A stretch of DNA of 64,000 nt from NCBI GenBank assembly GCA_963816185.1, contig CAWFJJ010000001.1, forward strand, positions 161,224-225,223, written 5' to 3'. This DNA is from Thermoanaerobaculia bacterium. GTDB taxonomy: Bacteria; Acidobacteriota; Thermoanaerobaculia; UBA5066. Both the position numbers and the translations under genes were made by a program. Below are positions 2,494 to 64,000 of this stretch, piece after piece. Below the pieces are notes generated by a model. The model did no database searches. It had not been told where the DNA came from and was given only the letters and a program-made list of their open reading frames with translations. Numbering within the stretch: position 1 is the stretch's first letter; each line of letters opens with the position of its first letter.

Positions 2494-4039
2494 ATGTCCG
2501 GCTCCCGGATTCTCGTCCTTTTCGCCCTCCTGCTCCTCGGCGCTGGGCGTCCTGCTCGGACTGCCCTCGTCCCTCGCGCCGGCCGCAGTCGTGATCGCCG
2601 TGGCGGCCGTTCTCGTTTTTCTCGCGGCGAGCCGGTCCCCCTCGTCCGCGGGTTCCCGCGCGGAGCCGGTGACGTCCGTGCGCGCGGTCTTCGGGCCGGC
2701 CGTGGACGCGATCGAGGCCGTCGCCGTCTACACGCTGGATCGGGCCGGCCGGATCGGCTACGCGAACAGAGGCGCGCGCCGCGCCCTCGGGATCGAGGAA
2801 CGCGACGTGGAAGGGCACGCCTCTTCGGAGCTGCCCGCCCTCGGCGCCGAGGCGCCCGAGATGATCGAGGGTCTGAACGAGGTCTTCGAGACCGGCCAGG
2901 CTCGAGCCGCTCGGCGGATCCTGCTGCCCGGGGACGGCGCGACGAAGGTCGAGTCGATCGTCTCGATGACGCCTGTCTTGCGGTACGGCAAGGTCGTCGA
3001 GGCCGCCATCTGGCGCGTCGACACGCGCGGTCCGGCAGGCGAGGACGAGCACCTCGCGCGCCTGCTCGATTCGTCGCCCGCGGGCCTCCTCGGCGTGGAC
3101 GCCGTGGGCCGCATCGAGGCGGTGAGCCGCCGGCTCGCGGAGTGGGTGGGGCGCCGCGCGGACGCTCTCGAGGGCCTCGACGTGGAGCGCTCGGAAGTCC
3201 TGCCCGAAGAGCTACGGGCGCTCATCCGCGCGCACGCCGTGAACCGGGCCCCGCAGGGCACGCCGACCACCCCGGTCGAGGAGGACGTCTCTCTCGTCAC
3301 GCCCGAAGGCGTTTCCCGGATGCTGCACGTCGTCGTGACGCCGCGCCCGGGCGGCGGAGCAGACGCCGTCTTTCTCGACGGGAGCTCGCGGCGCCGGCTC
3401 CTTGCCGAGCTGGACGCGGCCCGTCGGGCGCTCGCCGAGGCGCGCGAAGCCGCGGTGGACGTCCTGCAGTCCACGACGCGCGATCTCAAGACGCGCGTTC
3501 AGGAGATCGTGGCGGCGGCACGCCGCGCGGCGGACGAGACTTCCGGTCCGATCCAGCGCGCGCGCGCCGAGGCCGAGCTGAAGGCGACGAGCGACGAGCT
3601 TCTCGCGAGCGTCGACGAGAGCGGACCCCGGGACGCCCGCCGGCCGATCGGTGGCGCAGACGGCCGTCCGCGCGTCCTGCTCGTGGAGGACAACGAGGAA
3701 AATCGCGAGCTTCTCGCCCACATGCTGAGGTCGCGCGGCGCCGAGGTGCTCACGGCGGGCAGCGGTCGCGAGGCCGTGGACGCGGCCGCGGGCTTCCGCT
3801 TCGATTTCGTCCTCCTGGACCTGCACATGCCCGAGATGGACGGCTTCCAGGTGCTGAGGCGGCTGCGCGGCCTGCCGGACGGAGAGCGGTTGCCGGTCAT
3901 CGCGCTCACCGCGCTCACGTCCGACCTCATCAAGGAGCGATGCGAAGCGGAGGGAATGAACGACTTCGTGTCCAAGCCCGTGACGCTCGCGCGCGTCGGG
4001 GAGCTCGTGGCGAAATGGGGGCGTACGGGTCGGACCTGA
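2494..4039 (+). CDS. Membrane-anchored PAS-domain response regulator (REC at C-terminus). It has an apparent 1-nt frameshift near 2545.
   Basis: The ATG at 2494 encodes MSGSRILVLFALLLLGA in frame 1. From ~2545 frame 2 is continuous through two predicted TM helices, then through 2591..4039 with a PAS-like region and a C-terminal receiver (RVLLVEDNEENRELL ... DFVLLDLHMPEMDG ... DFVSKP). Removing one G from the GGG at 2544-2546 joins the frames. Confidence 0.7.
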
Positions 4040-13967: not shown

Positions 13968-15630
13968 GTGCTCGTTCTCAACGTGCGCGTGCCCGGAGAG
14001 CCGGCGCGCCGCATCCGGCTCGACCGCCCGGTCCTGACGCTCGGCCGCTCCTCCACGAACGACGTCCCCCTCGGGGATCGGACGCTCTCGCGCGTGCACG
14101 CACGAATCGAGGGCGTCCTCGACGGCGGGCCGATCCGTCTCGTGGACCTCGGATCGCGGAACGGCACGTCCCTGAACGGCTCGCGCATCACGGAGCCGAC
14201 GCCGCTTTCGGCCGGGGACCGCATCCAGCTCGGCGAGACGCTCGTGGAGATCATCGAGGAATCCACGACCCGCGTCGTCATCGATCCCTTCGGGGAAGAG
14301 AGCTCCAAGAGAACGACGTTCCTGCAGTCCTCCAAGGATCTCCTGCGTCCGCACAAGCAGGAGCGGGACTCGAAGCTCGGGGCCGAGGAGCTCGCGCGCC
14401 TGAACGCGTCGCTCCGGATGCTCAACGAGATCTCCGTCGAGCTTCTCGGCGATATCCCGTTGAACCGCCTGCTCGAGCTGATCCTCGAAAAGACCTTCAC
14501 GTTCCTGCAGCCCGACCGCGGTCTCCTGATGCTCGCGGACGAGCACGGGGAGCTGAAACCGGAGAAGGTGAAGTATGCCCCGGGCGTCGACCCGTCCGAC
14601 ATCCGGCTCAGCAAGACGCTCATCCAGTCGGTGGTGGAAAAGAAGAACGGCGTCCTCCTGATCGACGCGGCGACGGACGCCGGTCTCGGCGCCGCCGAGT
14701 CGATCCGGATCCAGGGCATCACGTCCTGCATGGCGGCCCCTCTTTTCGTCGAGGACAGGGTCATCGGACTCATCTACCTCGAGGTGCGGCTCGGGCGGAA
14801 GAGCTTCAGCGAGGAGGACCTGCGCCTCCTGACCTCCCTCGCGAACACGTCCGCCATCAAGATCCAGAATCTGCGCCTGCAGGAAGGCGCCGCGGCCCGG
14901 AAGCGCATCGAGAGCCGAGATGGCTCTCGCGTGGGACATCCAGCGGCGCCTGCTGCCGGAAGCCGAGCCCATCCTGCCGCACACGGAGCTCCTCGGCCGG
15001 ACGGTTCCGGCGAGCACGGTCTCGGGGGACTATTACGACTTCTTCGAGCGGGGGGACAAGTCGCTCGACGTCGTCGTCGCGGACGTGAGCGGAAAAGGCA
15101 TGGGCGCCTCGATTCTCGCGGCCTCGGTGCAGGCCGCGTTCCAGGCGTGGGCCGGAGAGCACTTCCCGCCGGATCGGCTCTGCTCGCGGCTCAACGAGAT
15201 GGTCTTCCGGCGCACGAGCCCGGAGAAGTTCATCACGTTCTTCCTCGCGCTCTACGATCCCGAGTCGGGCTCCGTCGTGTTCACGAACGCGGGTCACAAC
15301 CCGGGCATTCTCGTGCGGGCCGGCGGCGCCACGGAGCTGCTCGGCGCCCACGGGCCTCCGCTCGGGCTCTTTCCGGGAAAGACCTACGGTTCGGGGACCT
15401 TCACGCTGGAGACGGGCGACGTCCTCGCCCTCTACACCGACGGCGTGACGGAGGCCGCGAATCCCGAGGACGAGGAATTCGGGACGCCGCGCCTCGTCGA
15501 GACGCTCGTGAGGGCGCGCCGGGGCTCAGTCGCGCAGATCGAAGCCGAGGTCGGCGCGGCTCTCACGGCGTTTACCGCCGGCACGCCTTTCGGCGATGAC
15601 CGGACGTTCGTCGTACTGAAGCGAACCTAG
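13968..15630 (+). CDS. FHA-GAF-PP2C (SpoIIE-type) serine/threonine phosphatase. It has an apparent +1 frameshift near 14900.
   Basis: ORF 13968..15599 carries an FHA domain ([13 protein letters not shown] ... SRVHARI ... [10 protein letters not shown]) and a GAF domain. ORF 14920..15630 in the +1 frame carries the PP2C domain ([14 protein letters not shown] ... GDYYDFF ... [13 protein letters not shown] ... [11 protein letters not shown]). The frame-0 continuation is low-complexity. Confidence 0.75.
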
Positions 15631-15679: not shown

Positions 15680-16288
15680 TCAGCCGCCCTTCGGCTCCCC
15701 CATGAGTTCTCCTCGCTCGTTGTAATAGCACCGGCAGTTGCGGCGGAGCTCTCCGTTGAGCATGGTGCGGGCTCGGTGCAGCCTGATCTTGACGGTTCCC
15801 ACGGAGAGGGAGAGGCGACGAGCGGTCTCCTCGCTCGTCAAATCCTCGAACTCGCTGAGGACGTATACGTCGTGGTAGCGGGGGGGAAGCTTTCGGACGT
15901 AGTCGAGGTAGCACGCGACCATCTCGTTCCGAACCGCGTTCTCCTCGGGCGTGCGCGAGCCGGGGTCCGGAAGGCGCGAAGAGGCGGTGTCTTCCTCGTC
16001 ATTTCGCCACGCGGGCTCGGAGCGTTTTCGTCGGGCCGCATCCCGGACCGTGTTGAGGGTGATCGTGTAGATCCAGGATGTCAGCTTCGAGGAGTCCGAG
16101 ACCGTCGACAGGGACCGACGAATCTTGACGAAGACCTCCTGGGCGATGTCGTCGGCTTCGTTGCGGCCGAGCAGCTTGGCCGCATAAGCCACCACCTTGC
16201 CGTGGTAGGTCTCGTAGATCCGAGAGAGGTCGAGGGCCCCATCGCTCACCGGCGCTCCTCCACGGAACCGTCCCTCGAATTGTCCCAC
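15680..16288 (-). CDS. ECF-subfamily RNA polymerase sigma factor
   Basis: 202 aa. It has region 2 (DIAQEVFVKI) and region 4 HTH (TSEETARRLSLSVGTVKIRLHRAR). The C-terminal tail has CRCYYNE. Confidence 0.85.
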   Translation of the reverse strand: MGQFEGRFRGGAPVSDGALDLSRIYETYHGKVVAYAAKLLGRNEADDIAQEVFVKIRRSLSTVSDSSKLTSWIYTITLNTVRDAARRKRSEPAWRNDEEDTASSRLPDPGSRTPEENAVRNEMVACYLDYVRKLPPRYHDVYVLSEFEDLTSEETARRLSLSVGTVKIRLHRARTMLNGELRRNCRCYYNERGELMGEPKGG

Positions 16289-16626: not shown

Positions 16627-18033
16627 CTACGCGCGAGGCGGCGCGGCGGCCTCCGGCTCGACCGCGTCCCGGGCGTCTCGTGAAAGCATGCCGTGGCGCT
16701 TCAGCATCTCGTTCAGCGTCGTCGGCTTGAGGCCGAGGAGCTCGGCCGCGCGCTTCTGAACGCCCGACGCGCGCTGCAAGGCCGCCGAAAGCAGCGAGCG
16801 CTCGTAGGCGGCGACGGCATCCTTGAAGGAGAGCCCCTCGGCGGGCAGCGCCGCCGCGCGCGGCACGGAGCGCCGCACGGTGTCCGGAAGCTGGTCGAGG
16901 TCGATGACGCCGTGGCCGAGAACGAGGGCGCGCTCGAGGACGTTCTCGAGCTCGCGCACGTTGCCGGGCCAATCGTGGTCGAGGAGCGCCTTCATCGTCG
17001 CAGGCGTGACGGAGGGGACGGCCCTGCCGTTCTCCGCGGCGGCTCGCGCGAGGAGCGTCTCCACGAGAAGCGGCACGTCCTCGCGGCGCTCGCGCAGCGG
17101 AGGAAGCGGAATCGTGATGACGCAGAGGCGGTAGAAGAGGTCTTCGCGGAAGCGGCCCTCGGCCACGAGCCGCGCGAGATCGGCGTTCGTGGCCGCGATG
17201 ACGCGCACGTCGGCGTGCTGCGGCTCGACCGCGCCCACGGGCAGGAATTCGCGCTCCTGCAGGACGCGCAGGAGCTTCGCCTGCGTCTCGATCGGGACCG
17301 TGCCGATCTCGTCGAAGAAGATCGTGCCCTGGTCGGCCGCCTTGAACAGGCCCTTCTTGTCGGCGACCGCACCCGTGAACGAGCCCCGCACGTGTCCGAA
17401 GAGATTCGACTCGAGAAGGTCGGGCGGGAGAGCTCCGGAGTGTACGGTGACGAACGGGCCCGACGCCCGCGGAGACAGCCGGTGGAGCGCCTTGGCGACG
17501 AGCTCCTTGCCCGTTCCGCTCTCTCCGGTGATCAGGATTGTCGAGCGCGCGGCCGCCGCCTGGCGGATCGTCTCGAACACGCGCTCCATCGAGGCCGAGC
17601 GCCCGATGATCTCCTTGAGGCCGGGCGGAGTTTCGAGGCGCGCCTTGAGGGCTCGGTTCTCGGCCACGAGCCGGCGCTTCTCGAGCGCCTGCTTGACGAC
17701 GTGGACGACCTCCTCGTTCCGGAATGGCTTGGGGAGGTAGTGAAACGCGCCTTCGCGCATCGCGGCGATCGCGCTCTCGACGGATGAGTACGCGGTCACG
17801 ACGACGATCGGCACCTCGGGATGCCGCGCCTTGACCTCCGACAGGACTTCGAGGCCCGGGCGGTCGGGGAGCATGAGGTCGAGGAGCAGCAGGTCGATGG
17901 GCTCCTTGGCGAGGCGGTCGAGCCCCTCTGCCGCTGTTGCGGCTTCGCGCGTCACGAACCCGGCCTTCGCGAGCACGGACCCGAGAACGTCGCGGATGAC
18001 GGGCTCGTCGTCGAGAATGAGAACGGTGGACAT
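16627..18033 (-). CDS. Sigma54-dependent response regulator (NtrC family: REC + AAA+ + HTH)
   Basis: 468 aa. REC (ILILDDEPVIRDVL ... LLLLDLMLPD), AAA+ (GESGTGKE, GAFTGA-like, ESNLFGH) and C-terminal Fis-type HTH. Confidence 0.95.
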   Translation of the reverse strand: MSTVLILDDEPVIRDVLGSVLAKAGFVTREAATAAEGLDRLAKEPIDLLLLDLMLPDRPGLEVLSEVKARHPEVPIVVVTAYSSVESAIAAMREGAFHYLPKPFRNEEVVHVVKQALEKRRLVAENRALKARLETPPGLKEIIGRSASMERVFETIRQAAAARSTILITGESGTGKELVAKALHRLSPRASGPFVTVHSGALPPDLLESNLFGHVRGSFTGAVADKKGLFKAADQGTIFFDEIGTVPIETQAKLLRVLQEREFLPVGAVEPQHADVRVIAATNADLARLVAEGRFREDLFYRLCVITIPLPPLRERREDVPLLVETLLARAAAENGRAVPSVTPATMKALLDHDWPGNVRELENVLERALVLGHGVIDLDQLPDTVRRSVPRAAALPAEGLSFKDAVAAYERSLLSAALQRASGVQKRAAELLGLKPTTLNEMLKRHGMLSRDARDAVEPEAAAPPRA

Positions 18034-18036
18034 TTT

Positions 18037-20778
18037 TCAGGTCGCGGCGGGAAGGGATACGGTGAATCGGGCGCCACGCTTTCCCGCGGACGTCACCGTC
18101 AACGTCCCGCCATGCGCGTGGATGATATCCCTCGCGATGGCGAGCCCGAGTCCGGTCCCCCCCTTCGCGGTCTTCGTGGAATAGAACGGCTCGAACACGC
18201 GGGCCGCCTCGGCATCCGTCAGGCCGGGTCCGTTGTCCTCGACGGAGAAGATGACGTGGCCGTCGTCTGCGGCAACGCGCAGCGTGACGGCAGGCGGCGG
18301 ATCGCCGGCCGCGCGCGGCAAAGAAGGCGATGTCACCGCCTCGAGCCCGTTCTTGGCGAGATTCACGAGCACCTGGACGAGGGCGTCGCGATGGCCGGAG
18401 ACCGCCGGGAGGCCGGGCGCGGCCTCGACGTCGAGCGTTGCGCACCGCGCCGCGCTCTCGTCCGCGAGCGCCCATCCGGTCTCCTCGGCGAGGGCGGCAG
18501 GGTCGAGGCGCACGAACTCGCGCGGCTTCCCGCGCGCGAGGTCCAGAAGGCTGCCGACGAGGCGCGAGGCCCGGAAGGCCTGGCGTTCGATCTTCTCGAC
18601 GAGCGTCCGGCGGGGATCGTCGCTGGGCGTCTCGTCGAGAAGCAGGCGCGCGAACCCTGCAACGCCCGCGAGCGGCGTATTGACCTCGTGCGCGACGCCG
18701 GCCGAGAGGGTGCCGAGGGCCGCGAGGCGCTCGCGGTCGGCGAGCGCGCGTTCGAGGCGCGCGGTCTCGGTTGCGTCGTAGAGGACGAGTACGCGGGCGT
18801 GGGATCCCGGACCCGCGCCGGGAAATGGCGAGACGGCGACGTTGAGGACGCGCGGCCCCGAGCCGAGGTCCGCCTCGAGCCGCGCGGGCGGCATCTGGGA
18901 AACGAGCGCGGCAGGCAGCACATCCGCTGCCAGCGTGCCCACGAGGGACGTTGCGTCGCGCCCGAGGAGGGCTTCGAAGGCCGGGTTGACCGACGTGAAT
19001 CGGCCCAGATCATCGGTGGCTGCGATTGCCGCGGCCGAGCCCGCGACGACGTTCTCGTGAAAGCGCTGGAGCGTCCGGTAACGGTCGGCCTCGACGCGCA
19101 GCTCGTCGAACAAACGCGCGTGGTCGAGCGCGAGCGCCGCCGGCGCGAGAACGGTTTCGAGAAGCTCCGTGTCCTCGGCCGACAGGGGAACGCGCCCGGC
19201 GCGGTCGCCGACCGCGAAAAGGGCGAGGAGCCGCCCGGAAACGGTCAAGGGCGCGAGCGTGCGGAACCCTGCGTGCCTCAGGCGCGAGACGGCGGCGGTC
19301 GGACGCGCCGCAAAATCCTGCCGCGACAGGCGCGTCGTACGCGAGAGGGCCCTCGCGGGAAGCTCCGAGAGCGCGAGCGGCGGGCCTCCGTCGACGTCCA
19401 CGCCGAGGAGGACGTCCTCCTCGACGGGCAGGAGGGCCGCGCGCGAGACGCCGAGACCCCGCGAAACGCGGTCCGCAAGAATGTTCTGAAGGTCTTTGAA
19501 AGCCCGCGGCGTCGGCAGCTCTCGAACGAGCGCGAGCAGGCCTTCACGATCCCGCAGGGCTTCGCGATACTGAAGGCGCGTGAGCGCGGTCGAAAGGCCC
19601 CGACGCACGGGTCCGAAGCTGAGCGCCATGAGAAGTCCGGCGGACACCTGCAACGCCGCCCTCGCGTGGGGAATCCCCACGGCCACAGGCTGCGCGAGAA
19701 GAAGCTGGGCGAGCGTGAAGAAGCCGGCTCCTACGAGCAGGGCGCCGAGCACCGACGCCGTTTGGCGGCCGAGAACCTCGACGTCCCACAGGCGGTAACG
19801 CGTGAGCGACGCGAGGAAAGCCGCTGGAACGAGCGCGAGAGGAAGCACCGAAAGCGACGAGACGATCGGAATCGAGCCCCCGAGAAGCCGGGGCACGAGA
19901 TTCAGGAGAACGAGGGGAAGCATGCCCACGGCCGTGCCGAGCAGGAGGAAGCGGACCTGCTTCTCCGTCAGAAGGTCAGTCGGCCGCCGCGCGAGGACGA
20001 GGAGCCGTACGGCCGCAAGGGCGGCTCCCGACGCCATCCAGATGATCTGCGCGCGGTCGAGGGCGTTCACCGCTGCCGACGTGTCGCGTCCCGCCCTTCC
20101 GGAATACACGGCCGCAGTCGCGATGAGAAGCAGCGCAGCGGGCGCGAACGGGAGCCACGCGGGTGTGCGACGCATGCGCCTTGGGAACGTGAAGACGAGC
20201 GAGAGAAGGAGAGCGGGGAACAGCGCGCGCGCAACGTCCTCGATCAGAACCGCCGCGCGAAACAGCCCGTCGATCGGCGGCACCGGCGTCAGGGTGAGGA
20301 CGAGAGCCACCGAAAGGGCGAAGCCGGAGAAGACGAGCGATTCTCGCGACGGCGGGGAGGGGCGGGCCGCCGCCAAGCCCGCCGCCAGGAACGCGAGGCC
20401 CACGGCGAAGAGGAAGAGGTAGCGCCAGTCCCAGGACGACACCGGGACGTTCCGGAATGTCCGAAGCGCGTCGCCTCGGAGGACGGTCACCTCGGCGGAG
20501 CGCTCCGCGAGCCAGCGCGAAGGATCGCCCGCACGCCGCGCCTCGTCTCCGTCGACGAGCAGCAGCAAGTCACCGGGCTTCAGACCCGACGGGGCGGCGG
20601 ATTCGCCGACTCGGCGCACGCGGAGGCCCTCCGGCTCGGGCGAAACCAGGACGTCGGCCCGACCGAATGCCGAAACCTTACGCGCCAGGCAAAGCGCGGA
20701 CGGCACGAGCGCGAGCGCGAGAGAGCACAGCACGAACCATCGCGCTAGGGCGCGCACCCAGGGAGATCGAGCCTCCAT
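18037..20778 (-). CDS. Sensor histidine kinase with an N-terminal PDZ-like domain, a multi-TM domain, GAF/PAS, HisKA and HATPase
   Basis: 913 aa. H-box LSAGVAHEVNTPL. G-boxes DNGPGL and GGTGLGL. The N-terminal half is polytopic, with the motif RYRLWDVEV. Confidence 0.9.
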   Translation of the reverse strand: MEARSPWVRALARWFVLCSLALALVPSALCLARKVSAFGRADVLVSPEPEGLRVRRVGESAAPSGLKPGDLLLLVDGDEARRAGDPSRWLAERSAEVTVLRGDALRTFRNVPVSSWDWRYLFLFAVGLAFLAAGLAAARPSPPSRESLVFSGFALSVALVLTLTPVPPIDGLFRAAVLIEDVARALFPALLLSLVFTFPRRMRRTPAWLPFAPAALLLIATAAVYSGRAGRDTSAAVNALDRAQIIWMASGAALAAVRLLVLARRPTDLLTEKQVRFLLLGTAVGMLPLVLLNLVPRLLGGSIPIVSSLSVLPLALVPAAFLASLTRYRLWDVEVLGRQTASVLGALLVGAGFFTLAQLLLAQPVAVGIPHARAALQVSAGLLMALSFGPVRRGLSTALTRLQYREALRDREGLLALVRELPTPRAFKDLQNILADRVSRGLGVSRAALLPVEEDVLLGVDVDGGPPLALSELPARALSRTTRLSRQDFAARPTAAVSRLRHAGFRTLAPLTVSGRLLALFAVGDRAGRVPLSAEDTELLETVLAPAALALDHARLFDELRVEADRYRTLQRFHENVVAGSAAAIAATDDLGRFTSVNPAFEALLGRDATSLVGTLAADVLPAALVSQMPPARLEADLGSGPRVLNVAVSPFPGAGPGSHARVLVLYDATETARLERALADRERLAALGTLSAGVAHEVNTPLAGVAGFARLLLDETPSDDPRRTLVEKIERQAFRASRLVGSLLDLARGKPREFVRLDPAALAEETGWALADESAARCATLDVEAAPGLPAVSGHRDALVQVLVNLAKNGLEAVTSPSLPRAAGDPPPAVTLRVAADDGHVIFSVEDNGPGLTDAEAARVFEPFYSTKTAKGGTGLGLAIARDIIHAHGGTLTVTSAGKRGARFTVSLPAAT

Positions 20779-20944: not shown

Positions 20945-22882
20945 CTAGAACGAGACCGCGAATCCGCCAGCGAGTCGGCGATTCAGCTTCTCCTCGTCCT
21001 CCCCCTCACGCCGCTTGCCGAGCTCCAGGGAGAACAACGCGCGCAGGTCCGAACCGATCGAGCGCATCGCCTCGAGCGGGATGGACTGCCCGAGCGTGAG
21101 ATCCACCGCCTCGACGTCGTTGTGCAGGACCGCTGTTCCGCGCGTGAGCGATTGCGTCACGACGCGGTAGCCCATGCCGAGCGACGTGTCTGTGGCGCGG
21201 ATGCGGATTGCGGCCCGCACGACGCCCCACGTCGCGTCGTCGGACTGAATCTCGCCGTCGCGCTGTCCCGAGAGCTTTCCCGCGCGCATCGAGACGCGGC
21301 CGTCGAGAGCCTTGCCGAGCCGCGCGGCGGCGCCGAACGAGACGTCCGTCGCGATGTCGTTCGCGAAGAAATAGAGCGAGTCGAGTCGGTCGAGAAAATC
21401 CGGATCGAAAAGCAGGCGGTAGGTGCCCGTGAGCTCGCGACGCGACGCCTCGAGGAAGAGATTCTGGTCCTCGCCGGTCTGCCATCTCAGGCCCGCCTTG
21501 TACAACGCGCGCGAGCGCCGCGTGAGATCGGCCTCGTCGGTGCCCGCCTCTCCCGGCAGGAGCTCGTCGCCGTCGAGACGCCGCTCGAAGCGGCGCGCGG
21601 CGAAGCCGTAGAGCTTCCAGCCGTCGCGCGTCGCGATCGCGAGCGTGACCTCGGGTGTAATGCCGCGCGAACGCTCCGACACGTCGCCCGTCCCGCCCGT
21701 CTCGATCACGAAGACGTCGAGCAAACGGACGCCCGCGACGGCGCCCGCCCGCGTCTCCCGGTCGAAAGGCGACGTCTGGCCGGCGAACTCGTTCATGGCG
21801 CTCCGATAGGAGACGGAGACGCGCGCGAACGTCGAGGAGGAGAGGTCGGTTTGATAGCGGGCGGCGACGTCGACGGCGTTCGACTCCCGCGCGAAAAGGT
21901 CCGCCACGGGCCCTGCCGACAACAGCCGTGACTGCGAGACGACGTGGGCGGAGACCGATGCCTGTGAGCGCTCCGAGACGGCGCCGTTCCAATCGAGAGA
22001 GTGTGCGGCAAAGCGTGCGCCGTCGGCGTCGTCGGCCACGGTCTGCTGGCGGGAGGAGAGGTGAATGTTCTGGCCCGAGCCCATCGGCCCCGATGCCAGG
22101 TCGAGCGCCACGCGCGACGCATCGCCCGTCTTCTCGCCCGACATCGCGGCGAGCCGCGCGTAGGCGCCCGAGGCTCCCCAGCGCAGCTTGTCTCCGGCCG
22201 TTCCGCTCAGATCGAGCGAGGCCCGTGACAGGGAGGAGGCGCCCGCGGCGCCGAATCCCGCGGTGGACGCCACGGACGCGCGGACGGGAAGTGAGGTCGT
22301 TCGCCCGTCACGGCCTGCGATCGAGACGGGGGGCGTCGCGTTCTCGGGTCCTTGCTCGAGGGCGGCCAGCACCGCGGGGACCTCGCGCAGGACGTCGCCT
22401 GGCGCGACGGCGCGTGCGATCCATGCGTCGAGGGGTCCGCCCGTCGCCTCGGGGAGGATGCCGGCCGGAGGTTCGAGATCGAGGCGTACGAAGGAGAGTG
22501 CGCCGTCGGAGGTCGCCCGGTGCAGTAAGCGTACGAGCGCGGGGCGGAAGCCCGGCACGACGGAGAGGACCGTGTAGAGGCCTTCGGCCGCGTCGCCGAG
22601 GACGAACGTGCCGTCCGTGTCGCTCTTGAGGAGCTTCACGACGCTCGCTCCTCCGGCCGTCACGCCGCGCACGACGAGGGCGGCGCCCGGGACGGGCACG
22701 CCGCCGGCCCTCACGATGCCCGACAGAGGGGCCCGGCGCGCTCCGGCTTCGCCCGCGGCCGCGGGGCGCGCAAGAAGCGCCGCCGCAGCCACTCCGGCAA
22801 GCAGGCGTCCGGTCGAGCGGCTCAAAAGGGTCACGAACCCTCCCCTTTGACTATCATCCGCCCGGTTTCGGCGCCCCGTCAA
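20945..22882 (-). CDS. Outer-membrane beta-barrel protein with an N-terminal carboxypeptidase-regulatory-like domain
   Basis: 645 aa. Signal peptide (LLAGVAAAALLARPAAA). CarbopepD_reg-like motif GIVRAGGVPVPGAALVV ... TDGTFVL. The remainder is amphipathic beta-strand-rich and ends in a terminal F. Confidence 0.65.
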   Translation of the reverse strand: MTGRRNRADDSQRGGFVTLLSRSTGRLLAGVAAAALLARPAAAGEAGARRAPLSGIVRAGGVPVPGAALVVRGVTAGGASVVKLLKSDTDGTFVLGDAAEGLYTVLSVVPGFRPALVRLLHRATSDGALSFVRLDLEPPAGILPEATGGPLDAWIARAVAPGDVLREVPAVLAALEQGPENATPPVSIAGRDGRTTSLPVRASVASTAGFGAAGASSLSRASLDLSGTAGDKLRWGASGAYARLAAMSGEKTGDASRVALDLASGPMGSGQNIHLSSRQQTVADDADGARFAAHSLDWNGAVSERSQASVSAHVVSQSRLLSAGPVADLFARESNAVDVAARYQTDLSSSTFARVSVSYRSAMNEFAGQTSPFDRETRAGAVAGVRLLDVFVIETGGTGDVSERSRGITPEVTLAIATRDGWKLYGFAARRFERRLDGDELLPGEAGTDEADLTRRSRALYKAGLRWQTGEDQNLFLEASRRELTGTYRLLFDPDFLDRLDSLYFFANDIATDVSFGAAARLGKALDGRVSMRAGKLSGQRDGEIQSDDATWGVVRAAIRIRATDTSLGMGYRVVTQSLTRGTAVLHNDVEAVDLTLGQSIPLEAMRSIGSDLRALFSLELGKRREGEDEEKLNRRLAGGFAVSF

Positions 22883-31893: not shown

Positions 31894-33600
31894 GTGAAAG
31901 TGTCCCTCTCCGCCCTCTTGGCGGCTGTACTGGCTGCGGCTATCGGCTGCTCGTCCTCTGGGCCTTCGGCTCCCGCCGCGAAAACCGCGGCCGAAGAGAA
32001 GGCCGCAGAGGACGCGAAGCGAAGTGAACGCGCGAAGGCGCTCCTCGGCCTGCAGCCTCCGGCGCCGGTTCCGGGAGAAGAGACCGGCGAAGTTCCAACG
32101 ACGACGGTCGTGGACCCTGACACCGGAAAGAAGCTCCTCAGGATCCCAAAGCAGATCCTCTATTACGAGAAAGGGGGACGCCTCTTCAACGCCGTCGTGG
32201 TCGGGCCGGGACTCCCGATCGTCCGCGAGGACGACAAGGCGTACTTCATCCTCGCGCCTCCGGAGCGGCCGAAGCCAGCTCCGGGGAAAGCCGGCGAGCC
32301 GGAACCCGAAGACCTCAAGCCGATCATCGAGCTCCCGGCGAGCGAAGCCGCCGTCGTGACGCCGAAGGTCTCGAAGGGCGCGTTTCGTTTCGAGGAGATC
32401 TCCGATGGTTTGCCGGTCGGGGGCATGTGGCGTGAGAACTTCGACGTGGGAGACGTCCTTGGGCAGGGCCGTCCCCAGATCGTCGTGCCGCCGGCCCGGC
32501 TCACGGGCAACTTCATTCGCGTGTACCGGCTCGACAAGGGCGAGGACGACAAGTGGCGCTGGCACCTGGCCAACGTCACGTTCGAAAACGCCGAGAATAT
32601 TCAAGCGGCTTACGGTGCCGCCACCCTCGCGGACATGGACGGCGACGGCAAGCTCGACATCGTCTTCGGAGGACACGGCTCTGGACCCGCGATCGCGTTC
32701 AACAAGGGTGGAGGCGCGTTCAAGGTCGAGACCCTGGGTCTGCCCCGGCAGATGTCGACGCGTGCGATCGCCGTCGGAGACCTCAACGGCGACGGCCGGC
32801 AGGACCTTCTCGCCATCTCCGACGATCCCGAGTGGCTGCTCGCCGCCGGCAAGCCGCACGCCGACAAGGGCAGCTCCTACGTGCGGGGGTACGACGTCCG
32901 GGCCTTCCTGAACGAAGGCACGCGTTTCCGCGAAATTCACAAGGGCCTCGAAGGAGCCTGTTTCGGGTACTCGATTGCGCTCGTCGTGCCGAAGGACGCG
33001 AAGGACGGGCTGCCGTTCTATTCGTCCGGCTGCCGGTACACCTCGAGCGCCACGCATCTCTTCGAGTTCGATCCCAAGCTTGAGGAATTCCGCTACGCGG
33101 GCGTCGGCGTGGTGGAGCTCTTCTCCCAGCACATGGGATCGGCCGCCGGCACGTACCACGGCCGGCCCGCGGCCTTCGCCTCCTGGTTCAAGCGTTCGCC
33201 GTTCGGCGCCACGCCCAAGATCGACGGGCAGGGGGTCACGGTCTATTACCGGGACGTGGACGGGAAGATGGCGAGCAAGCGCGTTGTGAAGACGCTCCAG
33301 CCCGAGGCCCCCGGGTCATCCGGCATCGCCGTCGGGGACCTGAACGGAGACGGCCTCGACGACGTCGTGTGGTGCGACGAAACGTCGCAGCGCATACGGG
33401 TCTTCTTCCAGACGTCCGAGGGCGAATTCGAAGAGCTGCCGACCGAACGGGAGCCGACCTTCATCAACCATCCGACCTCGCTCCGGATCGCGGACTTCGA
33501 CGGGGACGGGCACAAGGACGTCGCCCTCATGTACCAGTACCTCACAGGGGACGAAACCCGGGCGGGTGGATTACGCGTCTTTCGAGGCCTCCCGAAGTGA
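31894..33600 (+). CDS. FG-GAP/VCBS-repeat beta-propeller lipoprotein
   Basis: GTG start with an AGGAG RBS. Lipobox AAAIGC. Repeated DxDGDGxxD motifs (DMDGDGKLD, VGDLNGDGRQD, VGDLNGDGLDD, ADFDGDGHKD). Confidence 0.7.
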   Translation: MKVSLSALLAAVLAAAIGCSSSGPSAPAAKTAAEEKAAEDAKRSERAKALLGLQPPAPVPGEETGEVPTTTVVDPDTGKKLLRIPKQILYYEKGGRLFNAVVVGPGLPIVREDDKAYFILAPPERPKPAPGKAGEPEPEDLKPIIELPASEAAVVTPKVSKGAFRFEEISDGLPVGGMWRENFDVGDVLGQGRPQIVVPPARLTGNFIRVYRLDKGEDDKWRWHLANVTFENAENIQAAYGAATLADMDGDGKLDIVFGGHGSGPAIAFNKGGGAFKVETLGLPRQMSTRAIAVGDLNGDGRQDLLAISDDPEWLLAAGKPHADKGSSYVRGYDVRAFLNEGTRFREIHKGLEGACFGYSIALVVPKDAKDGLPFYSSGCRYTSSATHLFEFDPKLEEFRYAGVGVVELFSQHMGSAAGTYHGRPAAFASWFKRSPFGATPKIDGQGVTVYYRDVDGKMASKRVVKTLQPEAPGSSGIAVGDLNGDGLDDVVWCDETSQRIRVFFQTSEGEFEELPTEREPTFINHPTSLRIADFDGDGHKDVALMYQYLTGDETRAGGLRVFRGLPK

Positions 33601-35853: not shown

Positions 35854-38800
35854 ATGCCCCATGTGACCCGCACTCGTCGCCACGATCGTTCTCGCGCGTC
35901 CCTTTTCGTGGCAGGCCCCGCCGCCATGGGACTTCTCCTGGTTCTTGCAACGCTTCCTTCGCGCCTGGAGGGTCAGTGCACGCTGTCGGGCTCGCCGGCT
36001 GCGTTCGAACCGAATCCACCCGGCGTCACGCGGCCCGGAACCCTGAGTAGCGGATTCAACAACAGCCTCGTGCTCTATCAGCCGGCGGCAGCGGTCCGTA
36101 TCGGCTCCTCATGCAGGAGTCGTTCGGCTACTCGGTCCTCGATCTCACGACACCGACGAATCCGACCGCGCTCACGTACCACGACATCCGGTTTCCGTTA
36201 GGCGGCCCCAACAGCGTGCGCGCAAGCCGGCGACGGGCAGAATCTCGTTCAGACGATCGCCGTGTCTCCGGACGGGGTGCGCGGGGCCTTCTCGATGACG
36301 GGGCTGTCGGCGACGATCCAGACGGCCGTCGGAACTCCCAGCGGCGGAGGCGGCTTTACCCTCTGGGGGGATTTCTATCCCAAGCGTTCGAACAGCACGC
36401 TCGTCCAGCACATCGGCACACGTTACATCGCGTACGACATCCACCCGAACGTCGTGACGGCCTCGGACGTCAGCTCGTTACCGGGGGGCTCTCTCCAGCC
36501 CAACAACCTCTCGTACGAGATCACGACGTGGCCGGGCGGAGGCCGCGCGGTCCTGGCCGGGAACTACATTCTCTACCAGATCACCGGCGCCATCCGGGTC
36601 ATCGATGCGTCCCTTCCGGGACCCGTCGGAAACATCACGGCCTCTTACCCGCAGACGTCCATCACGAACGCCGATTTTCCCGGCGGCCGCACGATCGCGA
36701 ACTTCACGGCGGCCGTCGATCCGGCCGACGCGACGAAGCTCTGGGTCCTCGTGGAGCTGAGCGCGCTGGCCGGCGAGAACTCGCCCAGCTACGGGCTTCT
36801 CTCCGTCACGAAGAGCGGCCTCGGAAAGGTCTCGGCGGGCCCGACCTGGCGAGTCCCGTCGCAGACGGGCGACGTGTGGCTGCCCGTGGGGATGAGCTCG
36901 GCTCTCGTTGCGAACGGCACCGACCTGTTCGTCCTGATGTGGGCGGAGAGCCAGCTCCCGACGAACCAGTTCCTCCTCTATTCGACGACGGCGGGAGCAT
37001 GGGGGAGCGTGGCTCCGAGCTCATTTCCCGTGAGCGGCACGACGTTCGCGCTCCCGGGGAGGACGGCGGGCTTCGGGGTCGCGGGGACCAGCTCCGTCTA
37101 CTTGTACGTGCCCACGACGGTGTCCGCATACGTGATCCCGATGTCCTGCGTTTCCGTAAACGCGCCCGCGGTCGCATCGATGACCGTCGCCAACCAGGCG
37201 GGCGCAGCTCTCAACAACGGCGACACCGTGTTCCTGGGCGACCGGATCACGATCACTCCGTCGATCAACCCGCCGCCGTCGACCCAGCCCCTGACGGGAT
37301 TCGGCTGGAACTTCGACCTCGACTTTCACGCGGGCGCCGCGTCCGAAGACAACGGCGCCACCGCGTCGCCACGCCTCCATGCGCCGGACAACACCCTGGG
37401 GGTGTTCGGCGTCAGCCAGCAGGCTCCTCTCCCCGCGACCATCTTCGGCCCTTGTGATCCTCAGGTGGGCGGCGTGACCGTGAGTAGCGGCGCCGGCTGC
37501 TGGACCTCGGTCACGACGAACGGCGCGTTCGCCGGCGGCACGGCGGATTTCAACGCGCAAAGTCCGGTCGCGAAGGCCCTCACCTTCGCATTCGAGGCGA
37601 ACAACGTCCTCGGCAGTGCGGGCTCGAAGCTTTTCACGCTGAACTGGGCGATCCCTACGGCGAAGCTCCAGACGACGCAGGTCCTGTCCGGCAGTCCGCT
37701 CGTGAGCGCCTCCGACGGCCACCCGATGGCCACAGGCTTCAAGTGGTATTTCGGCGCGACTTCGGGGGCCCTGACGCAGGCGGCATGTGCCGGCCCGACG
37801 TGCGTGCCGACGTTCGACACGACGGGCACCTACAACTACTGGCTCACGGCGACGTACGCGAACGGGTACGTGACGCCGGACTGCCCGGGCGCTCCGAACT
37901 GCACGGCCGCGATGGGGACGTACACCATCACCGACTTCGCGCCGGCGTTCACCGTGAACGGCAGCACGAGCGGCCCGATCACGGGGGTCATCAACCAGAA
38001 CTTGAACGTGACGAACAGCTCGCAGCGCGGCCAGACCGTGACCGCCGCGGGAGGTTTCTATTACAGCCTCTGCAAGGTTCCCTGTACGGGCGGGGACCAA
38101 TACGTGCTCTGGGGCACGATGGGCGATGCCCCGCCGAGCGGCTCGCCTCCGTATGGTCCGGCGACGATTCCGATCCCGGCCGACGGCCGGGACCTACGCC
38201 CTCAAGATCAGGGTGAATTACACGAACCCGACCGGGACGGCGTTCTGGCCGGATCCGGCAGGCGTCTCCTACTTCACCGTGAACGTCGTGGACGTGACCC
38301 CGCTCGTCGTGACCGAGTCCGTGAACCCTGCGAGCGCGTCCGTCGGCCAGAACGTGACGTTCTCGTGCAACGCGAGCGGCGGCCTCACGCCCTATTCGTA
38401 CCAGTGGCGAAACCCGATCTCGTTCGTCATCCCTGGCGCAACGGGGCCGACGTACACGACCACGTCGACCGTCGCGGGGGGCGTCACGGCCTACTGCTTC
38501 GTCACGGACAGCCAGCAGCCGGTTCCCGCCTCGAGCAGCGCGAGCGCGACCGCGACGTTCACCGGAGGAGGAGGCGGAGGGGGAGGCGGCGGCGGCAATC
38601 TCTCCGTATACGTCTCGGCGAGTCCAAACCCCGGCGCGGTCGGCCAGCCGGTCACGTTCTCGTGCGGCGCCTCCGGCGGGACGGCTCCCTACTCGTACGT
38701 GTGGCGTTCGCCGGCCACGAGCGCGTTCCAGATCCCGGGAGCGACTTCGTCGAGCTACACGACGTCGTCGTCGGTCGTCGGGAGCCTCTCGGCGGGATGC

Positions 38801-47387: not shown

Positions 47388-48409
47388 CGCTTCAGGAGCT
47401 CCTTGAGCTTCCACCACGGTGTGAAGAGACGCCACGCGAGAGAGCTGTTCATGGCATCGACGGTCGCGCGAAGTCGGACGTTCTCGACGGCGAGCGCCTG
47501 CTCACGCGTCGCGGACTCTTCGCTCTGGCGCGCGGTGTGATCCCGTGTCGCACGCAGCTCGGCTTCGCGGGCGGCGGCCGCGGCGAGGGCCGCCCGGTCC
47601 GCCTCACTCCGCGCGCGGGCCTCTCCGGCTTCGCTCTCGAGGCTGTCGATGACGGCCATCTCGGTCGAAACCGACCGCCGAGCCGCATGTTTCTCGAAGA
47701 GGCGGCGGCGAGCCGTCTGCGCTTCCGCCGAGTGCCACGGAAAGGCGGCCGTGATGTTCGACGCGTCGTTACGGACCCGGTAGACGGCGGTGACGGAAGG
47801 CAGATGATGGAACCGCGTCCGCGCGGAGAGGCGGATGAGGAAATCCCAGTCCTCGAACTCGTCGAAGGTCTCGTCGAAGCCGCCGATCTCTTCCGCGAGT
47901 GCGCGGCGATGCGCGAGGCCGATGAGGGGAATGTCATTCTTGTAGAGGAGACGCGCGGCATCGAACGGCCTCCCGTAGACCGTGATCTCGCGCCCGCCGC
48001 GGTAACGACCGTCGTCGCCGAGCACCTGCTCGATCTGGCGGACGGACGTGTAGGCGGCGCGGTACTCGTCGCTGCCGTCGAGAAAACGCACCAGCGTGTC
48101 GAGATGAGCGGGCAGGTAGAGGTCGTCGTCGTCGAGATACGCCACGTACGTGCCGCGCGCGGCCGCGAGGCCGGCGTTCAGGGACCGCGTTCTCCCGCCC
48201 GGTGGAGGCGGAACGAGCACCTGGATGGCACGGCCCGGCGCAGGGTCGAGAAGTCCGGCCGGAAGGAGGCCGCCGTCGTTCACGAGAACGGTCTCGAAGT
48301 CGGAGAACGTCTGGGCGCGAAGGCTGTCGAGGGCCTCGGCGAGGAGGCTCGGCCGGTCCTTCGTCCGGAGCAGCACGGAAACGCGCGGCGCGCTTGCCTG
48401 ATCGACCAC
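47384..48409 (-). CDS. Glycosyltransferase family 2 with a C-terminal coiled-coil and a Trp-rich amphipathic tail
   Basis: GTG start. GT2 motifs VSVLLRTKDRP ... VLVNDGG ... YLDDDD. The last ~100 aa are heptad/Ala-Arg-Glu rich and end in SSLAWRLFTPWWKLKELLKR. Confidence 0.8.
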   Translation of the reverse strand: MVDQASAPRVSVLLRTKDRPSLLAEALDSLRAQTFSDFETVLVNDGGLLPAGLLDPAPGRAIQVLVPPPPGGRTRSLNAGLAAARGTYVAYLDDDDLYLPAHLDTLVRFLDGSDEYRAAYTSVRQIEQVLGDDGRYRGGREITVYGRPFDAARLLYKNDIPLIGLAHRRALAEEIGGFDETFDEFEDWDFLIRLSARTRFHHLPSVTAVYRVRNDASNITAAFPWHSAEAQTARRRLFEKHAARRSVSTEMAVIDSLESEAGEARARSEADRAALAAAAAREAELRATRDHTARQSEESATREQALAVENVRLRATVDAMNSSLAWRLFTPWWKLKELLKR

Positions 48410-61150: not shown

Positions 61151-63767
61151 GAGACTGCGCATGTCGGTTCTGACGCCGGACCCGAGCAGCCCGGAGGGCG
61201 CCGTCGGCGTACCCGGCGGCTCGCCGCGGCGCCTGCTCATCTTCGTCGGCGTCCTCGCCTGCCTTCTCGCGCTTCTGTCCGTCGTCGACATGTTCATGGC
61301 GAAGGCCTACGACGGTGTCGTGCCGGACCCGTACTCCGTGAGCGGCATTCTCATCCGCGATCTCGTCCCCGGGGGCGCGGCCGAAAAGGCAGGCCTCAGG
61401 ACCGGGGACACGGTGCTGGGCATCGGACACCACATGCTCAACAAGGCGGCCGAGGCACCCGCCGAGCTGCGCCGCCACCGCGCGGGCGAGGCGGTCGACT
61501 ACCTCGTGAGACGCGGGGAGGACGTCTTCGAGACGAAGCTCGTCCTGACGCCCTTCCGCCTGGGTTCGGCATCGTATTTCTATTTCGCGTTCCTGGGCCT
61601 CCTCTTCTTCGTCCTTGGCGCTTTCGTGATCTCGCGGCGGCCGGACGACCCGGCCGTGCAGGTCTTTTACGTCCTGTGCATTCTCTTCATGCTTTTCTTC
61701 ATCTGCCGGCTGCGTCCGTCCAGCTACTACTGGATCGACTACGTCGTTCAGGTTGCCGGCACGCTCGCCCTGTTCCTCCTGCCGGCGGTTTTTCTGCACT
61801 TCTTCCTCCTGTTCCCGAAGAAGAAGACGTTCCGGTTCGCCGACCGTGCGCCCGGCGAAGCGCCCGCGGCGCCGTGGCTCTCCGCGCTCCAGCGTTTCCT
61901 CAATCGCTCGCCGCTGCTCCTGACTCTCCTGTACACGCTTCCGCCCGTCCTTTACGTCCTCCAGATGGCGGGCGCCAGAGGCGGCGGCTCGAGGCGGCTC
62001 ATTTACGGTGCGCCCACGCTCAACTGGATCCTTCTCGCCGACTACCTCATCCTCGGCCTGCTCGCACTCGCGCACACGTGGTGGACGAGCGACGACCGGG
62101 CGGCACGCCGGCCGATCCTCGTTCTTCTGATCGGCACCGTGGCCGGCATCGTGCCGTTCGTCGTCTTCGCCGTCTTTTTCCCGTCGCTCTTTCGCGAGGA
62201 CCGGTATCTCGCCTGGGGCGTCGTGCCGATGGCGCTCATCCCGCTCACGTTCGCATACGCGATCGTCCGATTCCGCCTCTTCGACGTCGAGGTCATCGTC
62301 CGCAAATCGCTCGTCTATGCGATCCTGACGGCCGTCGTCACGGGGTTCTATGCGCTCTGCGTCGTGACGGGGAACGCGCTCGTCTCGACCGTCTCGTCGT
62401 CGACTCTCCTCTCGTCTCCCGCGTTCGCGTTCGGCTTCACCCTCGTCGTCGTGCTTCTCTTCGATCCCCTGCGCAGGCGGATGCAGCGCGTCGTGGACCG
62501 CCTGTTCTTCCGCGACCGTGCTGACTTCCAGCACGCGCTCCTGGAGATGAGCCGCTCGGTCGTCTCCCAGCTCGAGAGGCCGAAGCTGCGGGCGCTCTTG
62601 ACGTCGCGCACGGCGGACCTCCTGCGGCTCGAGAGCCTCGACCTCCTCCTGCCGCGCGGCGAGGACGGCGCCTTCACGGACGGCTCCACCGGGGGCGTGG
62701 CCCTTCCCGCCCTTCCCATGGGGGCCGTGCTGCCCCGGCTGGTCCTCGAAAGGGGGTCTCCCGTGAGGCTCGCCGAGCTGGACGGCTGGGAGCTCGACCC
62801 CGACTCGCGCGCGTTCGTGGCCGCGGCGAAACGCCGGCCCGTCACGGTCGTCCTGCCGCTCGCGACGCACGGCAAGCTCCTGGGACTTCTCGCCGTCGGG
62901 CGCAAGCGTTCCGAGGAGGAGCTTTCGCGAGAGGATCTCGACCATCTGCTGACGATCGCGAATCAGGGCGCGCTCGGGCTCGAGGCGGCGGGTCTCCACG
63001 AGGAGCTCACGCGCCGGGCGGAGATGGAGAGGGATCTGGACATCGCGCGCGAGATCCAGACGAGCCTTTTTCCGCGGGAGCTGCCGCGCGTGCCGGGGGT
63101 TTCGTTCTTCGGCGTGAGCCGGCCGGCGCGCGTCGTGGGCGGCGACTTCTACGACTTTCTCGAGGTGGACGGCGACGTGCGAGCGGGCGGGCGCCTCGGC
63201 CTCGTCGTGGGCGACGTGTCGGGCAAGTCGATCCCGGCCTCGCTCCTCATGGTCGCCGCCAAGGAGATCGTCTACGCCCGGGCGATGGCCGATCCCGATC
63301 CCGGCGTCGTCTTCCGCGAGTCGAACCGGCGCCTGTACGACATCAAGCGGCGGATGTTCGTGTCGCTCGCGTACTTCCTCCTCGACCCGAAGACGCTCTC
63401 CCTCACCTACGCGTTCGGCGGCCAGCCGACGCCCCTCCTCCTGCGCGCGGGCTCGGGCACCGCGGTGGAGATTCCGGCACCTACGAATCGGCTGCCTCTC
63501 GGAGCCTTCCGCGACGTTCCTTACGACACCGTCACGTCTTACCTCTCGCCCGGGGACCTCCTCCTCTTCTACACGGACGGCCTCAACGAGGCGATGTCCG
63601 CCGAAATGGCACCGTACGGGGACGAAAGGCTCAAGGCCTCGTTCGTCCGCCACGCAAAGCGCCCTCTGCCGCAGCTCGCCGACGAGCTTCTCGAGGACAT
63701 CCGCCAGTTTACCCAGGACGCCGAGCAATACGACGACCAGACCTTCGTCCTGATGCGCGTCGGGTAA
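61151..63767 (+). CDS. Membrane sensor phosphatase: PDZ domain, multi-TM domain, GAF and PP2C (SpoIIE)
   Basis: 872 aa from MSVLTPDPSS. PDZ (GILIRDLVPGGAAEKAGLRTGDTVLGIG). About 8 TM segments with the motif VRFRLFDVEV. GAF. PP2C (GGDFYDFL ... VGDVSGKSIPASL ... LLFYTDGLNEA). Confidence 0.85.
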
Positions 63768-63828: not shown

Positions 63829-64000
63829 CATGCCGCTCGCGTCCCGCCGCTTCCTGCGCCCGCTCACCCTCGCCCTCGTGGTGGCGGGTCTCGTGGTGGC
63901 CGGGACCGCCGCGGCGTTCTTCCTCAGGAGCCGCCGCGAGGTCACGACGTCCTCGAAGCAGGCCCTGAAGGCTTACAACGAGGCGCGCGACAACGACCTC
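63829..64000 (+). CDS. Partial hypothetical membrane or secreted protein (5' end only)
   Basis: ATG at 63829. MPLASRRFLRPLTLALVVAGLVVAGTAAAFFL. The gene runs off the window. Confidence 0.3.

Follow-up and report, generated by a model that had tools for sequence, protein, structure and literature searches.

Sequence evidence that one PDZ, nine-helix and GAF membrane sensor is joined to a histidine kinase and to a SpoIIE-type phosphatase in a Thermoanaerobaculia bacterium

We analyzed a 64,000-nucleotide stretch of DNA (the window) from a Thermoanaerobaculia bacterium of the Acidobacteriota (assembly GCA_963816185.1, contig CAWFJJ010000001.1, positions 161,224 to 225,223). Two of its genes encode large signalling proteins, a sensor histidine kinase (HK) and a membrane-bound PP2C/SpoIIE phosphatase (PP). 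Both proteins have the same order of parts, namely an N-terminal transmembrane (TM) helix (TM0), a periplasmic PDZ domain, nine TM helices and a GAF domain, after which their outputs differ. Sequence and profile comparisons support the conclusion that HK and PP carry one homologous PDZ/multi-TM/GAF sensor fused to two outputs. An earlier note, made from the letters of the window alone, had proposed such a shared N-terminal architecture, and Pfam, BLASTP and hhalign all bear it out. We consider it probable that HK and PP are polytopic inner-membrane sensors built on one ancient module, with distinct outputs and independent envelope signals. The coordinates of all features are given in Table 1.

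The open reading frame (ORF) of HK lies exactly where it had been placed before. HK qualifies as a class I histidine kinase, with HisKA at 53.6 bits and HATPase_c at 87.2 bits, both above the gathering score, and its H, N and G boxes (AHEVNTP, NLAKNG, DNGPG and GGTGLGL) can all be read in the sequence. The anchor, the PDZ-like domain, GAF and HisKA-HATPase were recognized correctly in the earlier note, which missed the PAS domain between GAF and HisKA. For PP, the start proposed there (61151) is out of frame and its translation runs into a stop; the in-frame ATG is at 61161, the same site at which P0001, an NCBI protein 93% identical to PP, begins. The PP2C nature of the output was rightly called: PF07228 (SpoIIE) matches at 149 bits against a gathering cut-off of 25 (E=1.9e-43), and PP retains each of the metal-binding Asp motifs (GDFYD, GDVSGK, TDG and DD).

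BLASTP aligned residues 311-571 of HK with residues 354-627 of PP, from TM7 to the end of GAF (29% identity, E=2e-13). This alignment ends in the helical linker right after GAF (HK 571, PP 627), where the outputs diverge. A longer stretch of HK, residues 45-571, was aligned by tblastn with L002, a locus carrying a PP orthologue, in a single alignment (25.5% identity, E=6e-15). For the part of the module ahead of the conserved motif R[FY]RL[FW]DVEV, family alignments were built from database relatives of each protein, whose names agree with an origin of the window in Thermoanaerobaculia, and cut before the motif (HK 1-318, PP 1-361). The truncated profiles matched in hhalign from PDZ to TM7 (HK 40-318 with PP 49-361; probability 96.8%, E=2.4e-10, 272 columns), and the control against a reversed profile gave E=0.58. 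Furthermore, non-hydrophobic landmarks coincide in the two proteins, namely F-P after TM3, R..D...R.Q before TM6, GTxxGxxP, and an R-x-R-L-x-D-x-E turn. Because of the profile match with its reversed control, the tblastn alignment with L002 and the coinciding landmarks, we regard the similarity as true homology and not as an effect of composition. The pairwise alignment that the earlier note suggested as a check on itself has in this way given homology. Since the identity between HK and PP over the module is only about 22%, their split is an old divergence in a huge family and not a local event of reuse.

It might still be supposed that the similarity is merely compositional, produced by hydrophobic TM segments and high G+C content, and that the membrane regions are not homologous. 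In keeping with a genome of 68% G+C, HK and PP contain much Ala, Leu and Arg, BLASTP by itself aligns them from TM7 onward only, and the identity over the module is low. However, the match of the profiles ahead of the motif is lost on reversal, the conserved landmarks that are not hydrophobic stand at the same places, ComP proteins from low-G+C Bacillus match the hidden Markov model (HMM) of the module, and the AF2 models of HK and PP have equal numbers and order of helices. This explanation has already been tested and rejected on these comparisons, and we regard it as extremely unlikely. A second alternative accepts homology and makes HK and PP a matched push-pull pair, which would read the same envelope signal through equivalent PDZ/TM modules and oppose each other within one pathway, for instance over the phosphorylation of a shared target. 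The occurrence of the same architecture twice within one genome would suit such a pair, as would the sigma-54 activators at both loci (one with REC beside HK and, in relatives, one with GAF near PP). On the other hand, the PDZ domains are highly diverged and the modules only about 22% identical, the two genes lie 40 kb apart, each with its own conserved neighbourhood, and the two subfamilies have their own orthologues across Thermoanaerobaculia. In addition, histidine kinases and PPM Ser/Thr phosphatases target chemically different phospho-residues. A push-pull pair is highly unlikely in our estimation; HK and PP are distant paralogues, probably with different ligands.

Hydropathy and AF2 models agree on ten helices in each protein, which are one anchor and, after a beta-rich domain of about 80 residues, nine more. 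The model of PP residues 1-470 has a pLDDT of 78.9 and a pTM of 0.72, and that of the TM-only segment of HK (residues 112-425) has 86.3 and 0.74. The earlier note was thus right about a multi-TM module in both proteins, but its count of 7-8 helices falls short of the nine found after PDZ. Likewise, the motif R[FY]RL[FW]DVEV is common to both proteins, but it forms the cytoplasmic turn that joins TM7 to TM8 and is no part of the last helix. After it come TM8 and TM9 and then PLRRRxQxxxDRxFFR, a basic juxtamembrane helix that leads to GAF. Since all basic loops are on the cytoplasmic side, the PDZ domain is placed in the periplasm and the GAF and output domains in the cytoplasm. The most conserved residues are located at the cytoplasmic face, in the F-P that ends TM3, in GTxxGxxP of TM6 and in the R-x-R-L-x-D-V-E turn between TM7 and TM8. 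Alignment A3 shows no variation at F218, P219, G325, G329 and R370 (PP numbering), and alignment A2 none at R327 of HK (column R239).

Foldseek searches with the PDZ-containing model of PP matched solely PDZ domains of the HtrA family (DegS, DegQ, DegP, HtrA, AlgW and MucD), among them DegS with bound peptides of outer-membrane proteins (OMPs), at E=7e-5 and weaker and a root-mean-square deviation (rmsd) of 1.6-2 Å over about 90 residues. For the predicted structure, this confirms the fold and class of the PP PDZ domain. In contrast, the TM-only model of HK had no significant match in the PDB (best E=0.024, TM-score <0.5), and no solved structure for the membrane domain of this superfamily was found there by Foldseek. 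A likeness of the HK bundle to G-protein-coupled receptors (E=0.02-0.1, TM-score 0.33-0.46, rmsd 6-10 Å) was dismissed as a generic resemblance of helical bundles. We also rejected a site-2 protease (RseP-like) or a PrsW-like protease, as the module has no HExxH or comparable catalytic motif; Pfam and NCBIfam scans of HK and PP matched no protease family beyond PDZ itself.

The size of the family was estimated by a search of 1.84 billion representative proteins with the TM-module profile (alignment A2). The number of clusters matched fell from 39,346 at E<=1e-3 to 25,938 at E<=1e-10 and to 6,745 at E<=1e-30. The family ranks among the large bacterial sensor families. The best 146 of the 39,346 representatives were classified by local searches and Pfam (Pfam subset, n=65). 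Among these 146, a HisKA_3 kinase output is the most frequent (51, usually with a large ectodomain replacing PDZ), and SpoIIE and HisKA outputs were recognized in 19 and 15, respectively. About 40 more are short forms of about 480 aa, with a PDZ-sized ectodomain, the nine helices and no recognized output. In these short forms (e.g. P0177, P0181 and P0198; also P0090, P0091 and P0093) only 35-55 residues follow the module. The short forms may be stand-alone sensors that signal via a separate partner, or truncated gene calls. Pfam PDZ models match 33 of the 65 representatives and up to 13 of 28 family members, so that the PDZ-like domain of HK is well supported at the family level. In most relatives, the membrane part lies outside any Pfam family. 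The PDZ-bearing form with a phosphatase output is common yet unstudied, and our literature search for a transmembrane phosphatase with PDZ, SpoIIE and GAF found no paper. In so large and poorly annotated a family, the pairing of kinase and phosphatase with one sensor is an ordinary, well-precedented case of domain shuffling.

According to the earlier note, no named family could be given for the membrane module. None of the curated models reaches the module of HK and PP directly, and when both proteins were scanned with Pfam and NCBIfam, the sole named membrane family at E<=1 was PrsK, below its threshold. Nevertheless, that statement no longer holds, given a PrsK match at E=2e-14, matches of PF16927 via relatives, and ComP matches of up to 32 bits. 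From these sequence comparisons the module appears to belong, as a divergent branch, to a superfamily that includes HisKA_7TM (PF16927), the N-terminal part of PrsK (TIGR02916) and ComP-type sensors. PF16927 itself (gathering score 28.6 bits) matches neither HK nor PP at E<=1. However, it matches the distant relative P0101 at 31.5 bits, with the model ending exactly at the RHRLMDIE motif, and seven of the 65 close representatives (best E=9e-15), all of which fit the window-derived module profile at E<1e-53. In HK and PP, TM1-TM7 precede the motif, as in the HisKA_7TM layout, and TM8 and TM9 fall outside the Pfam model. The PrsK model, with its cut-off of 300 bits, covers PP residues 298-621 at model positions 142-471 (53 bits) and residues 107-558 of the relative P0085 at positions 7-458, again below the cut-off; HK reaches 66 bits, and there the best stretch is the catalytic domain only.

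ComP-family sequences (P0290-P0334, some named ComP by NCBI or JGI) were retrieved with an approximate bait, which is not itself used as evidence. Aligned with the module in hhalign, they gave a remote match (E=1.6e-4, probability 50%, 128 columns) over TM6-TM9 including the motif, and an hmmsearch of the 45-sequence set with the 218-domain module HMM gave remote matches of up to 32 bits (E=2e-10), some spanning positions 9-274 of 304. The equivalent motif of ComP, YQFVVNKIYDIDF, occupies the same position. These matches suggest that ComP, PrsK, the Pfam family HisKA_7TM and thousands of unannotated proteins are linked in one very large nine-TM superfamily, for which a single profile including TM8, TM9 and the juxtamembrane helix would be deserved in annotation.

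The PrsK matches allow a narrower assignment, in which HK is a PrsK orthologue, HK and its adjacent response regulator (RR) are PrsK and PrsR, and the PP locus is a PrsT/PrsR-like variant controlling the expression of exopolysaccharide and PEP-CTERM proteins. In the published description, PrsK is a transmembrane kinase whose sensor is novel, PrsR a regulator like NtrC, and PrsT a TPR protein (PMC1569441). TIGR02916 matches the TM and GAF region of the PP family, the PrsR model TIGR02915 gives 360 bits for RR, PrsT is the best NCBIfam match of the TPR protein in L002, and glycosyltransferase genes are clustered at 45-56 kb of the window. However, the scores remain far below the cut-offs, with 66 bits (HK) and 53 bits (PP) against 300 for PrsK, 360 against 503 for PrsR, and 81 against 312 for PrsT, and NtrC and AtoC score higher than PrsR for RR. 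PrsK as defined is not known to have a PDZ domain. No window ORF has a PEP-CTERM-type tail, and no exosortase was found among the part of the window proteins that was scanned, no genome-wide check being made. Because of the scores below cut-off and the lack of PEP-CTERM tails in the window, we rejected membership in PrsK/PrsR as very unlikely.

In the reading that we prefer, that of two sensors built on one ancient module, an envelope signal would be picked up by the PDZ domain, the helix bundle or both. In view of the DegS-like PDZ and the precedent of ComP, the most plausible candidates are peptides, protein C-termini or, as in ComX-ComP, a hydrophobic ligand resembling a peptide. From there the signal would pass, through the TM7-TM8 turn, to TM9 and the basic helix that continues it, and on to GAF, the helical linker and the output domain. 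A general proposal for PPM phosphatases, kinases and cyclases is that signals are transmitted through helical linkers (PMC12143880), and we infer that HK and PP would likewise signal as dimers through their linkers, whichever the direction of regulation. In HK, the PAS-HisKA-HATPase output would phosphorylate the adjacent NtrC-type activator and so switch sigma-54 promoters. By analogy with RsbU and SpoIIE, the PPM domain of PP would most likely remove the phosphate from a STAS anti-anti-sigma protein that belongs to a partner-switching module; in relatives the candidate module lies a few genes downstream of PP, which in our DNA would be past the window end.

Several points weigh against this reading. 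The matches of HK and PP to PrsK and PF16927 are below the curated cut-offs, and the link to ComP is only moderate, with its hhalign probability of 50%. The PDZ domain of HK is weak by sequence (E=0.21), and its fold is read from profile alignment only. As the membrane bundle has no significant match among solved structures, structure offers no mechanistic precedent. Because a tblastn search of the 64-kb window found no STAS or RsbW homologues, the proposed substrate of PP relies on gene order in relatives with 72-75% identity. We know of no superfamily member other than ComP for which the ligand is known. Even in ComP, a role of the PDZ domain in binding ComX has only been proposed (PMC9620489).

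A bolder version would make the PDZ-bearing branch direct receptors of peptides or protein C-termini that signal by phosphorylation and not by proteolysis, in effect a 'DegS without a protease'. The PDZ domain of DegS senses the C-termini of unassembled outer-membrane proteins. HK may then monitor such proteins, because the OMP-like protein encoded upstream of it ends in ...AVSF (...LSLSF in the orthologue), a C-terminus of the type bound by DegS-class PDZ domains, and PP may pass a second signal, of envelope or peptide origin, on to a partner-switching/sigma-54 circuit. In its broader form, one nine-TM module (about 39,000 clusters, largely outside Pfam) may unite ComP, PrsK and HisKA_7TM, with ComX-type peptide sensing as the ancestral function. 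We consider this version unlikely as a whole. The periplasmic PDZ domain nevertheless suggests peptide or C-terminus sensing by HK and PP, which is a testable idea.

As exact-sequence look-ups of HK and PP in the assembly index gave no match, their gene context was read from the orthologues P0135 and P0013 (loci L001-L003). RR, which begins 3 nt past the HK stop, matches NtrC (E=8e-131) and AtoC as well as PrsR, all under the equivalog cut-offs of NCBIfam. The pairing of HK with RR is kept in L001, and RR is taken to be the partner of HK. L001 keeps the whole gene order of OMP-like protein, kinase, regulator, FHA-GAF-SpoIIE protein, L31 and RF1. The OMP-like protein upstream of HK has a terminal Phe, as in C-termini of OMP type; its L001 orthologue has a faint CarboxypepD_reg match and ends in ...GGLSLSF. 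As a speculation, this protein might be a source of a PDZ ligand.

The PP gene is divergent from tmk. In L002 (12505-18358) and L003 (5630-11483), a conserved cluster lies downstream of the PP orthologue. It begins with genes for a TPR protein and a GAF-sigma54 activator, continues with a 68-aa ORF and the genes of an RsbW-like kinase and of a STAS protein, and ends with that of a GAF-SpoIIE protein. The RsbW-like kinase (E=4e-16) and the STAS protein (E=2e-10), both identified with NCBIfam, are located three to four genes past the phosphatase. This cluster recalls the PrsK/PrsR/PrsT theme, with a phosphatase replacing the kinase and a GAF-containing enhancer-binding protein replacing the REC-containing one. 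On the other side of PP, the region 45375-56106 contains a GT2+GT4 fusion (45375-47435), a membrane glycosyltransferase of PMT_2 type (51729-53261) and a GT4 protein (54826-56106), and may represent a locus for cell-envelope glycans, situated a few kb upstream of PP.

Table 1. Features of the kinase and phosphatase loci in the window (residue numbers refer to the encoded protein)
Feature	Position	Strand	Residues or length	Support and remarks
HK, sensor histidine kinase	18037-20778	minus	913 aa	TM0, PDZ-like, 9 TM, GAF, PAS, HisKA, HATPase_c; ORF, Pfam, hydropathy, AF2
HK TM0, N-terminal anchor or signal-anchor helix	20674..20751	minus	10-35	Hydropathy
HK PDZ-like domain, periplasmic	20443..20661	minus	~40-112	Pfam PDZ_2 E=0.21; aligned to PP-family PDZ by hhalign
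HK nine-helix membrane module	19603..20433	minus	116-392	HisKA_7TM / ComP / PrsK type
HK motif RYRLWDVEV	19774..19800	minus	327-335	Cytoplasmic TM7-TM8 turn
HK GAF domain	19123..19494	minus	429-552	Pfam GAF_2 E=9e-4, model positions 6-136 of 136 (full length); family support
HK PAS domain	18739..19059	minus	574-625, probably to ~680	Pfam match 574-625; PAS_8 E=7.6e-5, PAS_4 E=1.4e-4
HK HisKA, dimerisation / phospho-acceptor	18529..18717	minus	688-750	H-box AHEVNTP; Pfam E=2.3e-14
HK HATPase_c catalytic domain	18043..18393	minus	796-912	Pfam E=1.3e-24
RR, cognate NtrC-family response regulator	16627..18033	minus		REC, sigma-54 AAA+, HTH; 3 nt past HK stop
Secreted CarboxypepD_reg-type protein, probably outer-membrane	20945..22882	minus	645 aa	Signal peptide; ends ...GGFAVSF; conserved immediately upstream of HK
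ECF sigma factor	15680-16288	minus		TIGR02937 above cut-off; closest NCBIfam model SigZ, below threshold
Small ORF with two hydrophobic helices	16386-16586	plus	66 aa	MRKNIGNVERIVRVVLG...; divergent from ECF sigma gene
PP, membrane PP2C/SpoIIE phosphatase	61161..63767	plus	868 aa	TM0, PDZ, 9 TM, GAF, helical linker, SpoIIE
PP TM0	61224..61295	plus	22-45	Hydropathy, AF2; encoded in L002 too, upstream of start called there
PP PDZ domain, periplasmic, HtrA/DegS-like	61302..61556	plus	48-132	Pfam PDZ and PDZ_2 E=4e-5; Foldseek
PP nine-helix membrane module and beginning of juxtamembrane helix	61569..62507	plus	137-449	
PP motif RFRLFDVEV	62268..62294	plus	370-378	Cytoplasmic TM7-TM8 turn; R370 invariant
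PP GAF domain	62568..62984	plus	~470-608	Pfam match 521-608, E=2.3e-4; family support
PP SpoIIE/PPM phosphatase domain	63186..63761	plus	676-867	Pfam match, E=1.9e-43
TPR-protein gene start, cut by window end	63875..64000	plus	First 40 codons only	tblastn

The window had also been credited with an unusually rich set of Ser/Thr phosphatases. Only two genes with a SpoIIE domain were found in its 64 kb, one of them frameshifted, and no STAS or RsbW gene. The claim is unsupported, and nothing in the analysis marks this set as unusual for Acidobacteriota. The frameshifted gene, on the plus strand at 13968-15630, does have the FHA-GAF-PP2C content described earlier, but it is not one ORF, owing to a 1-nt insertion near 14912-14915 (+1 relative to the intact 550-aa orthologue in L001). 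At this site ATCGAGAGCCGAGATG stands in the window in place of the ATCGAGCGCGAGATG of the intact orthologue; the ATG at 14920 could still serve as a start for the SpoIIE part. As the kinase orthologue in L001 is frameshifted too (at about 9761-9776 of L001), a sequencing or assembly error is plausible for the frameshift in the window. The ECF sigma gene, in which the earlier note saw no cognate anti-sigma factor nearby, is real, and no obvious anti-sigma neighbour was found. It sits between RR and the FHA gene and is absent from the otherwise syntenic L001, so that it looks like a local insertion. Its C-terminal tail, ...RRNCRCYYNERGEL, includes a Cys motif that might be a built-in regulatory element. 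The small ORF divergent from it has no NCBIfam match, and we presume that it resembles the small membrane proteins of the DUF2892/YgaP type. Elsewhere in the window, 2591-4039 (plus) encodes a PAS-PAS-REC protein with no recognized output domain, 31894-33600 (plus) an FG-GAP repeat protein, and 38126-40966 (plus) a 946-aa protein with PKD/Ig repeats, whose first-codon-position G+C content is unusually low (0.56, compared with about 0.7 elsewhere).

HK and PP provide a concrete, statistically supported case in which one membrane sensor would drive a histidine kinase and a PPM phosphatase alike. The case fits the 'exchangeable toolkit' model of bacterial signalling (PMC12143880) and does not overturn current understanding. 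Among known systems, ComP is the closest in layout. It is reported to have 10 TM helices, the first two of which are joined by an extracellular loop with a PDZ-fold domain (PMC9620489), and is catalogued as a PDZ-kinase family in a census of PDZ domains (PMC6411480). By hydropathy and AF2 models, HK and PP have the same arrangement of ten TM helices, with PDZ in the first extracytoplasmic loop, and share with ComP a cytoplasmic alpha/beta domain, which in ComP is followed by the kinase. However, the sequence similarity is remote, and the output of ComP is HisKA_3, of NarL type, with ComA as partner, whereas HK and PP have HisKA with an NtrC-type regulator, or SpoIIE. The ligand of ComP is the isoprenylated peptide ComX, encoded beside ComP. 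No comQ- or comX-like genes were found beside HK or PP, though no systematic search was made; their neighbours are instead the OMP-like protein for HK, and tmk and the TPR gene for PP. The likeness to HisKA_7TM lies in a seven-helix N-terminal sensor of histidine kinases, and the difference in TM8, TM9 and the juxtamembrane helix, which the Pfam model omits and which are all conserved in the module of HK and PP.

PrsK is likewise a multi-TM sensor with GAF and HisKA/HATPase, paired with a sigma-54 activator of NtrC type, and positions 7-471 of its model are covered by the TM and GAF part of the PP family. The sensor of PrsK was called 'entirely novel' and its stimulus was unknown (PMC1569441). 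HK and PP differ in scoring far under the equivalog cut-off, in the lack of a PEP-CTERM context in the window and in the added periplasmic PDZ, and PP has a phosphatase in place of the kinase. Among solved structures, the PDZ domains of DegS and other HtrA proteins come nearest to that of PP, but HK and PP carry no protease domain, and their PDZ is held between two TM helices of a signalling protein. Finally, PP resembles RsbU, RsbP and SpoIIE in having a SpoIIE/PPM domain after GAF and a helical linker, an arrangement proposed to carry allosteric control (PMC12143880), and in the RsbW-like and STAS genes of its orthologous loci. It differs from RsbU and RsbP in its input, which is a ten-TM sensor with a periplasmic PDZ domain and not a cytoplasmic RsbT-binding, PAS or REC domain.

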